Source: Candidatus Woesearchaeota archaeon
GTDB taxonomy: Archaea > Nanobdellota > Nanobdellia > Pacearchaeales > GW2011-AR1
Assembly (NCBI GenBank): GCA_964410025.1
Contig: CAYPFA010000001.1
Location: forward strand, 31,401-95,400
Length of the DNA stretch: 64,000 nt
Reading direction: 5' to 3'
The position numbers and the translations under genes are program-made. Under the pieces are notes generated by a model. It did no database searches. It had not been told where the DNA came from and worked only from the letters and a program-made list of their open reading frames with translations. Shown piece by piece: positions 18,362 through 40,144 of the stretch (within the stretch, counting starts at the first letter, position 1; each line of letters opens with the position of its first letter).

Positions 18362-20215
18362 TTAATTTCCTAATTCAAAATCGCCATATATTTTCTTAAA
18401 AATTCCCATTACCTCTGGAACAATCTTAACAGTATCTGCTTTAGAATCGGACAATGCTTTATTTAAATCATCAACATTCGAATCAACAAGTTTTTCTCCT
18501 CTTAATACGAATACTTTCCCAGCATCGACAACATAAACACTTTTCAAAAAGAAAACCTCAACAAGTTTTTCTGCTGTTTTTAAAACAAATCTCTTTCTAT
18601 CTATAGCAACAAAATCTTTTCTCTGAACATATTCAATCATAACATTTGTGATCTCTGCAGCCATTTTTCTGACATCTTCCATAGCAGTAATTTCTTTTGC
18701 CGTAACTTTTTTCTTTTTATCCTTATCAAAAGCTTCAAAATCTTTTTTAGTTTTAATAATAAATTTCAAATTTTCAGAAAATCTCGGCGGCATCTTTCCC
18801 TGCTTCACAAATTCATCATCGAATGCTTTTATAATAGCTGATTCTCCGCTCTTGCCCAATAAAGAACCAATCATTCCGAAAACGTCGCCATAAACCTGCG
18901 CAATCGACTTGTCCTGCATTCTTTTTTCAATCTGTTCTCTTAATTGCTTTAATCTTTTTATATAATCAATAGCATCTTTAGCAACTCTTTCAACTTCACT
19001 TCCACTCACTTTCTTAATCTTACCATGCTCCATTCCCTTATAATATTTAATACTAATTTCTTCCAAAATATCAGCATACTTCTTTTCAATTAATTTTTCT
19101 TTCTCAACAAATAATTCTCTAAACTCTTTGACAGTATCATAAACATTTCCCGGTGCTCTTCCATACAACATCAAAAGTCCTTGCGTTGGATATGAAACTC
19201 CAGTAAAAATATCCATAGTGACTATATCTAATAATCTTCTATTAATATTATCTTCAAGTCTATCTCCCGTCGACATAAACATATCCAAAGATTCTCTAGA
19301 TGCCTTAATCTTGCCCATCTTTAATAAAGATTTCCAAGGCAAAAATGCTCCTCTATCATAAAGTGGTATTCCGTCTCTAATAAAAGTAAACATAACTGGA
19401 TGAGCATCCTTAACCGCTTCCCAGAATTCAGTCATCAAATAAACCTGCGGAGAAAGAAGATTTTTAACGCCAGCAATAGCCGTTGCTTCCTGAATATATT
19501 GAAAAATAACTGAACGTAATTTTTCTTTCAATTCAAACCTAGGCATTCTTTTTACATCCGTATCATCAATAATAATAAAAACATCCACATCTGAAGTAGG
19601 CTTTGTTGTTCCTCTAACTAAACTTCCACCAATAACATAAGCACTAACATACTTTTCGAATTTTCTTAAAACCAAGGATTTGTGTATAGATGAAACTCTA
19701 AGCGCACCAAGTAATCCCTTATCTAAAATAGGATATGACATCGCCAAAGCTTCAAAAACATCGAATTTAGAATCCAATCCCAAATTCCAAATATCCACTG
19801 GAGTCATAATGTGCATCCAAATTTTATCATTAATATCTTTTGCTTTCTTTATGCACTCAAGTCTAATTTTCTGGATTTCCTTAAATTTATCCTCAGGAAC
19901 AACAACCAAAAGATGTATTAATTTTCTCTTGCAATCCGCTTCAGGAACCTCATACTCTTCTTCAATTTTTTGCGAAGCCTGAGCAGGAACAATTCCAATA
20001 GATTCTATAAATTTATATTGCTTAACCAAATCTTTTTTTAATTTTTCAATATCTGCCTTCGTTTTATCCATCTGCTTCACGACTTCTTTATCAAGTTCAT
20101 TTGCCATCGGTAAATTACCTAGCTTTGATTTTGGAATATAACCAGCAGAAAGATTTTGCTCAACAGTTTTTTCTTCTTCCTTTTTTCGATCTTTTTCAGA
20201 ATTACTATCAGCCAT
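18362..20215 (-). CDS. large nucleotidyltransferase-domain protein
   Basis: GGSLVRGTTKPTSDVDVFIIIDD is the pol-beta superfamily NTase signature. It is embedded in a 617-aa protein with a coiled-coil N-terminus and a long helical C-terminal region. Confidence 0.6.
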   Translation of the reverse strand: MADSNSEKDRKKEEEKTVEQNLSAGYIPKSKLGNLPMANELDKEVVKQMDKTKADIEKLKKDLVKQYKFIESIGIVPAQASQKIEEEYEVPEADCKRKLIHLLVVVPEDKFKEIQKIRLECIKKAKDINDKIWMHIMTPVDIWNLGLDSKFDVFEALAMSYPILDKGLLGALRVSSIHKSLVLRKFEKYVSAYVIGGSLVRGTTKPTSDVDVFIIIDDTDVKRMPRFELKEKLRSVIFQYIQEATAIAGVKNLLSPQVYLMTEFWEAVKDAHPVMFTFIRDGIPLYDRGAFLPWKSLLKMGKIKASRESLDMFMSTGDRLEDNINRRLLDIVTMDIFTGVSYPTQGLLMLYGRAPGNVYDTVKEFRELFVEKEKLIEKKYADILEEISIKYYKGMEHGKIKKVSGSEVERVAKDAIDYIKRLKQLREQIEKRMQDKSIAQVYGDVFGMIGSLLGKSGESAIIKAFDDEFVKQGKMPPRFSENLKFIIKTKKDFEAFDKDKKKKVTAKEITAMEDVRKMAAEITNVMIEYVQRKDFVAIDRKRFVLKTAEKLVEVFFLKSVYVVDAGKVFVLRGEKLVDSNVDDLNKALSDSKADTVKIVPEVMGIFKKIYGDFELGN

Positions 20216-20300
20216 ACCATATTGATGTTTTTGTGCTTTTTAAATGTTAAGAAACATATTCGTAAGCTTTAAAAGTCTTGAAAATTCTAAATTATTATAA

Positions 20301-20406
20301 GGGCCTATAAGCTAATGAACCATCGTGGTTGCTTATGGGTAAATAATAAATAAGGGCCTATAAGCTAATGAACCATCGTGGTTGCTTATGGGTAAATAAT
20401 AAATAA
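20301..20406 (+). repeat. two tandem 53-bp units, each starting with the first 17 nt of tRNA-Val
   Basis: Unit = GGGCCTATAAGCTAATG + AACCATCGTGGTTGCTTATGGGTAAATAATAAATAA. Identical copies lie at 20301-20353 and 20354-20406, and the third period begins the real gene at 20407. The unit is self-complementary (CCTATAAGC/GCTTATGGG and AACCA/TGGTT). Confidence 0.85.
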
Positions 20407-20477
20407 GGGCCTATAAGCTAATGGTAGACTCTCTCGCTTACACCGAGATGGCGGAGGTTCGATCCCTCCTGGGCCCA
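20407..20477 (+). tRNA. tRNA-Val (anticodon UAC)
   Basis: Acceptor GGGCCTA/TGGGCCC (one G-U), with T8, A14, G18G19 and A21. Anticodon arm TCTCG-CTTACAC-CGAGA and T arm GGAGG-TTCGATC-CCTCC. Discriminator A, and CCA is not encoded. The D stem has one C-A mismatch. Confidence 0.8.
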
Positions 20478-20503
20478 TTTAATATTTATAATTGAACCGG
20501 AGC

Positions 20504-20605
20504 TGGCGGAGGCGAAAATTTCGCTTTGAGTAAAAATAAATTAAGACAGAAAGCAATTTTTACGAAATGCAAAATTTGAGGAGATCCCTCCTGGGCCCAT
20601 TTAAT
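20504..20605 (+). repeat. partial 3' copy of tRNA-Val with 70 nt inserted in the T loop
   Basis: 20504-20512 TGGCGGAGG equals tRNA nt 44-53. A 70-nt insert follows (20513-20582). Then 20583-20605 GATCCCTCCTGGGCCCATTTAAT is identical to 20461-20483 (tRNA nt 57-73 plus 6 nt of flank). Confidence 0.7.
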
Positions 20606-32150: not shown

Positions 32151-32231
32151 AATATTAAAATTAAAGAGCACTACAAATCTTTTTAAATCCTCGAAAAGTT
32201 ACATTCTTAGGCAGTCGTGGTTAAGTGGTAG
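32151..32231 (+). repeat. 81-bp direct repeat, right copy (functional promoter plus 5' part of tRNA-Gly)
   Basis: Identical to 24849-24929. The TTTTTAAAT TATA-like box is centred about 27 nt upstream of tRNA position 1. Confidence 0.8.
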
Positions 32232-40083: not shown

Positions 40084-40097
40084 ATATTTATTTCTGA

Positions 40098-40144
40098 ACG
40101 TCTCTGAGCCACAGTCACGCATTCTACCATTGAACTACCGAGCT
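40098..40144 (-). pseudogene. intron-less partial tRNA-His-like copy (about positions 1-47) immediately upstream of tRNA-His
   Basis: AGCTCGG-TA-GTTCAATGGTAGAAT-G-CGTGA-CTGTGG-CTCAGAGACGT. The D arm and anticodon loop are identical to tRNA-His, but the acceptor strand differs, there is no G-1 and no matching 3' strand. A TATA-like ATTTAAAG lies about 28 nt upstream. Confidence 0.5.

Follow-up and report, generated by a model that had tools for sequence, protein, structure and literature searches.

Tandem fold-back units between the promoter and the gene of an archaeal tRNA-Val look like young, lineage-specific scars of a process acting at tRNA loops

What are two perfect 53-bp repeats, each opening with the first bases of tRNA-Val, doing between a tRNA-Val promoter and the intact gene, and how did they come to be there? 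The locus lies in a 64,000-nucleotide stretch of contig CAYPFA010000001.1 (the window, to which coordinates without a contig label refer) from a DPANN archaeon, of Pacearchaeota/Nanoarchaeota type to go by how homologues of a neighboring gene are named, with a genome of 0.83 Mb in 6 contigs (33% G+C, 88% complete; G000 hereafter), which together with its congeners G001-G007 makes up the eight genomes of the genus. A sequence-only reading had offered two answers, namely scars of repeated recombination in the D loop or functional hairpin RNAs, and had supposed that the units form a structured leader of the tRNA precursor.

Tandem Repeats Finder places the array at 20297-20423 (period 53, 2.4 copies, 100% matches, score 254) and, together with ARAGORN, confirms that both units are perfect and open with GGGCCTATAAGCTAATG, i.e. 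nucleotides (nt) 1-17 of the tRNA-Val(TAC) gene at 20407-20477, which is called by ARAGORN and scores 57.5 bits against the Rfam tRNA model. Each unit continues with AACCATCGTGGTT GCTTATGGG and ends in TAAATAATAAATAA, the same AT-rich sequence that, as had been noticed earlier, also precedes the live gene. Within the filler, the adjacent nt 4-12 recur as an imperfect inverted copy (8/9), alongside a mini-palindrome of 5 bp without mismatch, and a single unit folds as had been proposed, with CCUAUAAGC paired to GCUUAUGGG around an inner AACCA-UCG-UGGUU hairpin, at a predicted energy of -16.4 kcal/mol (z = -3.65; 1 of 200 shuffles was as good). Viewed as a duplication, the locus contains a 21-nt direct repeat spanning -4 to +17 of tRNA-Val, with 32 nt and no ORF between the repeats. 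Its features are as follows:

20268-20275, + strand: TATA-like box TTTAAAAG of the ancestral tRNA-Val promoter, at the genome-typical spacing to unit 1 and not to the live gene
20301-20353, + strand: unit 1, a dead copy of tRNA-Val nt 1-17 followed by a 22-nt filler and a 14-nt AT-rich spacer, at the ancestral gene start
within 20301-20353, + strand: the unit-1 filler, made up of the hairpin AACCA-TCG-TGGTT and GCTTATGGG, the imperfect inverted copy of nt 4-12
20354-20406, + strand: unit 2, 100% identical to unit 1
20407-20477, + strand: live tRNA-Val(UAC), 71 nt, with no encoded CCA, 100% identical to the gene of the closest siblings
20496-20512, + strand: diverged copy of tRNA nt ~37-51 (ACCGGAGCTGGCGGAGG), the start of a dead 3' half
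20513-20582, + strand: 70-nt hairpin insert in the T loop of the dead 3' copy, belonging to a repeat family found behind many tRNAs of G000 and G005
20583-20605, + strand: exact 23-nt copy of tRNA nt 55-71 with 6 nt of trailer, the end of the dead 3' copy

The 70-nt hairpin insert has ten matches in G005. The 22-nt filler together with AACCATCGTGGTT is unique, the 32-nt segment between the repeats occurring nowhere else in G000, and a search of the surrounding 2 kb for a local template of the filler recovered only 7-8-mers, fewer than in shuffles. Searches with Rfam models gave no match to the units above noise. In metagenome and genome contigs two specific unit patterns had 0 matches, and a 16-mer of the unit hit 120 loci, every one a chance match.

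The array itself is very probably real. Using the exact downstream ORF as a handle, we retrieved assembled contigs from three JGI metagenome assemblies of different samples, which carry the two-unit array within an identical 436-nt intergenic region and differ from the window by 0-1 mismatches over 4.7-6.5 kb; short contigs from three further samples begin within the repeat, as a tandem would give. As three independent assemblies thus agree on two units, an assembly artefact, which would have undone the earlier reading, is unlikely.

To reach more diverged strains we used the neighboring gene for a 617-aa nucleotidyltransferase (NTase), because the downstream orphan ORF has no homologues. Relatives with NTases 78-80% identical lie on sibling contigs L252/L253 and L254, and the tRNA-Val(TAC) encoded there matches the live gene of the window at 100% identity, with neither the units nor the downstream dead 3' copy at the locus. 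The promoter region CTTTAAAAGTCTTGAAAATTCTAAAT stands 25 nt before the intact tRNA-Val in L252 and L254, and also before a 5' fragment of the gene in G007; in the window the same region stands before unit 1 and not before the live gene. Hence, the gene originally began where unit 1 now stands. The congener G005 likewise has the promoter followed directly by tRNA-Val, without units. These empty sites, with the same promoter and the same tRNA, indicate that the 106 nt is a derived, lineage-specific insertion at the tRNA-Val D loop, and the complete identity of the two units points to a recent tandem doubling. The units accordingly look like young by-products rather than a conserved RNA device. 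The promoter-tRNA-Val module is divergent from the NTase gene in the window (20215-20480) and in L252; in L254 it is inverted relative to that gene, with the tRNA reading toward it, which makes the locus a point of rearrangement as well.

The position of the promoter bears on what becomes of the units. As had been claimed, only one TATA-like box is properly spaced: TTTAAAAG lies about 25-27 nt before G1 of unit 1, and neither unit 2 nor the live tRNA-Val has a TATA-like hexamer ending at a distance of 21-31 nt. Of the 39 tRNAs of G000, 20 have a hexamer whose end falls at that distance from the mature 5' end, with a sharp peak in its distribution (33 occurrences in the 20-29 nt bin vs about 5 elsewhere), and this spacing implies that the tRNAs of this genome have very short leaders, a few nt in most pre-tRNAs. 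A further example lies at 32187-32210 of the window, before tRNA-Gly. At the other unit-bearing tRNAs, too, the hexamer precedes the distal dead copy. G000 further encodes a full-length RNase P RNA (C2:175227-175508, directly downstream of tRNA-Phe-GAA; 64.9 bits, E = 3e-18). Given that the only well-spaced promoter precedes unit 1 and that an RNase P RNA is present, both units are most likely transcribed as a 106-nt leader and then cut off by RNase P. The structured leader proposed earlier thereby gains indirect support from a single ancestral promoter and a candidate processing enzyme, its transcription being predicted from sequence. In the predicted global fold the distal decoy pairs with the real 3' acceptor strand, which weakens the notion that the units are harmless and at the same time suggests that the local fold-back matters.

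The tRNA-Val locus is one instance of a genome-wide pattern. Searching for copies of at least 11 nt, within 300 nt upstream for 5' ends and within 400 nt downstream for 3' ends, we found a copy of the tRNA's own 5' end upstream in 12 of 39 G000 tRNAs, of its own 3' end downstream in 15, and of either in 24. Non-cognate pairs gave 8 (5') and 14 (3') hits out of 1420, and copies on the wrong side were seen at none of the 39. The 5' units belong to Val-TAC (x2), Val-GAC, Ser-GGA, Ser-GCT, Ile-TAT, Glu-TTC, Glu-CTC, Gln-CTG, Leu-TAG (x2) and Thr-TGT and share a common plan, in which the first 12-18 nt of the tRNA are followed by a small hairpin, then by a partial copy of nt ~4-12 in inverted orientation, and then by an AT-rich spacer that leads to the live gene. 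A comparison of the units showed that: 1) in all eight non-tandem units with exact copies the identity block reaches from 0-4 nt before +1 to nt 12-17, in the D loop, the exception as to its start being Val-GAC, where identity extends 41 nt into the leader. 2) Outside the exact blocks the leaders are unrelated, and the decayed Gln-CTG copy has no exact block. 3) Of the first 16 nt, 8-13 are paired with downstream sequence in 18 of 19 units from six genomes (G000, G001, G002, G003, G005 and G007). 4) The 30-nt double hairpin of the Thr-TGT unit is also present in the T loops of the dead 3' copies of Lys-TTT, Trp and Leu-TAG; this hairpin and a 70-90-nt family are tRNA-linked inserts that recur. 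5) The direct repeats flanking the inserts measure 12 to 32 nt, their length tracking tRNA landmarks.

Dead 5' copies as a whole range from nt 1-12 to nt 1-44. The longest kind is seen in the window upstream of tRNA-His (40095-40140, - strand), where a dead copy of the 5' two-thirds of a tRNA-His (nt 1 to ~44, anticodon GTG) differs in its acceptor stem, GCTCGGT, and has no hairpin insert; dead 5' copies of other lengths therefore exist. Several further observations concern the surroundings of G000 tRNAs. Hairpins with the conserved loop ATTGA(A/G)N(A/G)AA(G/A)(C/T)GAAAT follow many tRNA 3' ends and open downstream cassettes of ~150 nt (e.g. C1:248274-248300 after Gln-CTG and C2:94369-94395 after Leu-TAA), and their paired GA motifs look kink-turn-like. 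Introns of a conserved 82-98-nt family (..CTTACTTTCTTCAC.GAAGAAAGTTTCC..GGAAA..) are found at the anticodon-loop intron site in tRNA-Arg(TCG), in an ARAGORN-called Phe(GAA) on C1 and in Thr(CGT) (C1:106934-107105, C1:356136-356296 and C4:58995-59149), and a similar stretch that is not part of an intron follows closely behind tRNA-Ile(TAT), after C3:26671. ARAGORN also calls two intron-bearing tRNA-Phe(AAA) genes (C2:97944-98043 and C3:100745-100853); their counterparts in G005 are Trp(CCA) with an intron and Gly(CCC), and the two calls are probably mis-called intron-containing Trp and Gly genes.

Among the congeners the units come and go. The Ser-GGA unit is present in G000, G001 and G003 and absent from G002, G004 and G005. 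The Val-GAC unit of G000 has a homologue in G007, a different unit occupies the site in G005, and G001, G002 and G004 have none. Glu-TTC carries three different units in G000, G002 and G003 and none in the other five genomes; the Ile-TAT unit is found in G000 only; and the Gln-CTG unit, too, is found in only part of the congeners. Sampling of 44 tRNAs from three other genera of the family turned up no 5' copy at all. Where the Ser-GGA unit is shared by three species both strands of its stem are kept, with one compensated change in G001 (C4>T with G>A), and the inner hairpins cannot be aligned. Selection or template switching could account for the kept stems; their preservation across species at tRNAs other than tRNA-Val hints at some folding constraint, and with it at a role of some sort.

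The D loop of tRNA-Val has also received larger DNA. In G007 and G006 (loci L182, at G007:C5:3900-8300, and L028 and L015, in G006) the same promoter is followed by tRNA-Val nt 1-21 and then by a 3.2-kb insert whose products are a 320-aa LAGLIDADG-like protein, an unassigned protein of 250 aa and a 361-aa reverse transcriptase resembling those of group II introns (134.9 bits to TIGR04416, which is below the cut-off). After it comes a different intact tRNA-Val(TAC), adjoining the 3' remnant of the old gene, and by this arrangement the insert is a gene-replacing cassette. As these inserts occupy the same D-loop position as the units, the D loop of tRNA-Val(TAC) is evidently a recurrent insertion point. 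In the window itself, the promoter and nt 1-21 of tRNA-Gly are duplicated 7.3 kb apart. No fold-back stands beside the dead fragment in either cargo-bearing D-loop insertion, the tRNA-Gly island or the G007 insert, which implies that the small units are not simply deletion remnants of such insertions.

These observations lead us to lean, with modest confidence, toward reading the units as non-coding scars, young and specific to this lineage, that a process confined to the genus left at a tRNA loop and that slippage later doubled. Of the two answers offered from the sequence at the outset this is the one that gains, with its empty sites, the D-loop inserts of congeners and at least 12 analogous 5' scars in G000. 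We propose that the ancestral locus consisted of the promoter, about 25 nt and tRNA-Val, and that 53 nt entered the D loop between nt 17 and 18, bringing the 22-nt filler, the 14-nt spacer and nt 1-17 in a new copy, by which tRNA-Val would have stayed whole while the old nt 1-17 were left stranded and dead behind the promoter. More generally, small hairpin DNA would insert in tRNA D or T loops and duplicate the segment from loop to terminus, the units being the 5'-side footprint. An A-B-A arrangement could then have become A-B-A-B-A by slippage or unequal exchange across the 21-bp direct repeats. Transcription, driven by the one ancestral promoter, would begin near G1 of unit 1, the 106-nt leader with both units would be removed by RNase P, and the local fold-back might tie up the 5' acceptor strand of each decoy so that it does not pair with the genuine 3' acceptor strand.

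That the origin was driven by an agent, either a mobile hairpin or cassette or a recombinase, is a more tentative part of this proposal, to which we give a little less than even weight. It is favored by the landmark-bounded identity blocks, the strict polarity, the hairpins common to several loci and the restriction to one genus, and disfavored by the filler being unique and tiny, by the want of a linked enzyme and by the cargo-bearing D-loop insertions that have no fold-back. We know of no kind of element as small as the 32 nt between the repeats, and searches of G000 recovered no LAGLIDADG_3 or reverse transcriptase match, only three tyrosine recombinases, and no transposase or nuclease linked to the units. 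Bolder, and in our estimate rather unlikely, is the idea of a still-active, genus-restricted mechanism that recognizes tRNA genes by structure or transcript boundaries and inserts short hairpin DNA in their D and T loops with exact loop-to-terminus duplication, by which the essential gene would survive, selection keeping the units folded.

The main rival to agent-driven scars is template switching during replication or repair at the tRNA gene, set off where a fork stalls or the DNA breaks near the D loop, without any mobile element or recombinase. One or two error-prone events would then have made both the direct and the inverted copy, and the excess across the genus would reflect a lineage-specific repair deficit. 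The filler speaks for it, being an 8/9 inverted copy of nt 4-12 joined to a perfect 5-bp mini-palindrome and unique in the genome, and hairpins are documented as made and repaired in one step (PMC8794818). By inspection, about 5 of 7 independent units moreover have a complement that runs without a break across nt 8-9, which the natural partner strands of the tRNA would not give. Against these points, the identity block begins at the first base of the tRNA or upstream of it in 8 of 8 exact-copy units and not at random leader positions, identical hairpin sequences occur at different tRNAs, and for the remainder of the filler the surrounding 2 kb offers no template better than chance. We regard template switching as possible, though hardly a probable account of the whole. 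Two related derivations of the units were considered and set aside. If a full gene copy had lost its interior, the strands that partner the D-stem and acceptor in the tRNA itself could have remained as the fold-back, and the T6-G wobble does match the acceptor stem; the contiguous complements and the dead copies of other lengths led us not to adopt this. Retrocopying of tRNA fragments was rejected, as no reverse transcriptase was found in G000 and the 3' copies carry genomic trailer and not CCA.

The second answer of the sequence-only reading was that the units work as RNA, whether as parts of the pre-tRNA serving processing, stability or regulation as a leader or as independent hairpin RNAs. 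Their stability (z = -3.65), the pairing of 8-13 of the first 16 nt in 18 of 19 units, the Ser-GGA stems kept in three species with one compensated change and a promoter placed for a start at unit 1 are all as such a role would have it. The distribution is not: the units are missing from the closest siblings with identical tRNA and promoter, and from G005, every unit-bearing tRNA is patchy among congeners, the two copies are young by virtue of their 100% identity, the 32-nt filler is found nowhere else in the genome, Rfam has nothing that matches, and none of the 44 tRNAs sampled in the three other genera has a 5' copy. We consider a function of this kind, functional hairpin RNAs included, improbable.

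More doubtful still is that the units are remnants of integrase-mediated elements (attL/attR) whose interior has been deleted down to 36 nt between the att cores. Identity blocks bounded by the tRNA terminus and a loop do resemble att cores, G000 has tyrosine recombinases, and cargo insertions are found at the same position in G007 and at tRNA-Gly; this account would, however, require near-total deletion at a dozen loci, each leaving a hairpin and an inverted copy that neither cargo-bearing insertion has, and many specificities for 24 different tRNAs. Least credible of all, to the point of being very nearly dismissed, is that the units are an artefact of copy number, as the short contigs that break within the repeat might suggest and the three concordant assemblies contradict, or exons of a split or intron-containing tRNA, given that ARAGORN (introns allowed) and Infernal, the check proposed with the earlier reading, find only the uninterrupted 71-nt gene and that inspection shows no bulge-helix-bulge, the intron start AACCAUCG having no complement to the exon-2 GUAGAC and there being no 4-bp central helix.

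A partial tRNA gene is ordinarily taken to mark a large integrated element. In this 0.83-Mb symbiont genome partial copies accompany 24 of the 39 tRNA genes, with almost nothing between the repeats, with strict polarity and with limits set by tRNA landmarks. If an agent caused them, they represent an undescribed route for DNA into essential genes without killing them; if repair did, tRNA genes are a major fragile site of reduced genomes; and if the still-active mechanism is true, it would amount to a novel type of selfish insertion or repair pathway that spares the gene. The units would add long structured leaders with a decoy acceptor strand to pre-tRNAs, and they confuse tRNA annotation and break short-read assemblies. 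With identical tRNA in both, the siblings (empty) and G000 (filled) offer a clean before-and-after pair for experiments.

Among known systems, partial tRNA genes are described as the attL/attR repeats of integrative elements in archaea and bacteria in PMC9897764 (citing Reiter 1989 and Williams 2002), and the tycheposons are further integrative elements that leave partial tRNA genes (bioRxiv 10.1101/2020.12.28.424599). The units resemble them in being a cognate, polar direct repeat of the tRNA end that is bounded by terminus and loop and leaves the gene intact, and in their presence or absence among close relatives, with empty sites in L252/L253, L254 and G005. They differ in having just 32-36 nt between the repeats, without integrase, cargo or recognizable element remnant, in the hairpin and inverted self-copy that follow the dead copy, and in occurring at the 5' ends of a dozen tRNAs of one 0.83-Mb genome. 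The tRNA-linked repeats (TLRs) of E. coli (Egan and Landy 1978; Stenum et al. 2021, PMC8144298) are short, non-coding units of tRNA operons that repeat the terminal 18-19 nt, are sometimes tandem, are co-transcribed and have no known function (PMC8144298). In brevity, lack of coding capacity, repetition of a tRNA end and tandem arrangement they are like the present units, but TLRs copy the 3' end, downstream, whereas these copy the 5' end, between promoter and gene, and carry a fold-back; the only TLR-like part of this locus is the downstream 23-nt copy at 20583-20605. Template-switch (quasipalindrome) mutations create hairpins in one step (Monttinen and Loytynoja 2022, PMC8794818), and in them, too, a reverse-complement copy beside its template forms a stem; alone, however, they leave unexplained the direct duplication bounded at +1 and the hairpins common to several loci. 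Split, permuted and multi-intron archaeal tRNA genes (Chan, Cozen and Lowe 2011, PMC3218864) are similar in that tRNA pieces are parted at D- or T-loop positions in a small archaeon, and different in that here the gene is complete, has no bulge-helix-bulge and is duplicated rather than completed by the pieces. The tRNA-Val unit insert lacks the dispersed copies with conserved ends of MITE/REP-like elements, and its absence from siblings and from Rfam sets it apart from a conserved structured leader or small RNA family. Full-text searches of the literature recovered no description of 5'-end fold-back units between a promoter and its tRNA gene. The nearest known systems are the att-type partial tRNA genes and the TLRs, neither of which describes 5' fold-back units.
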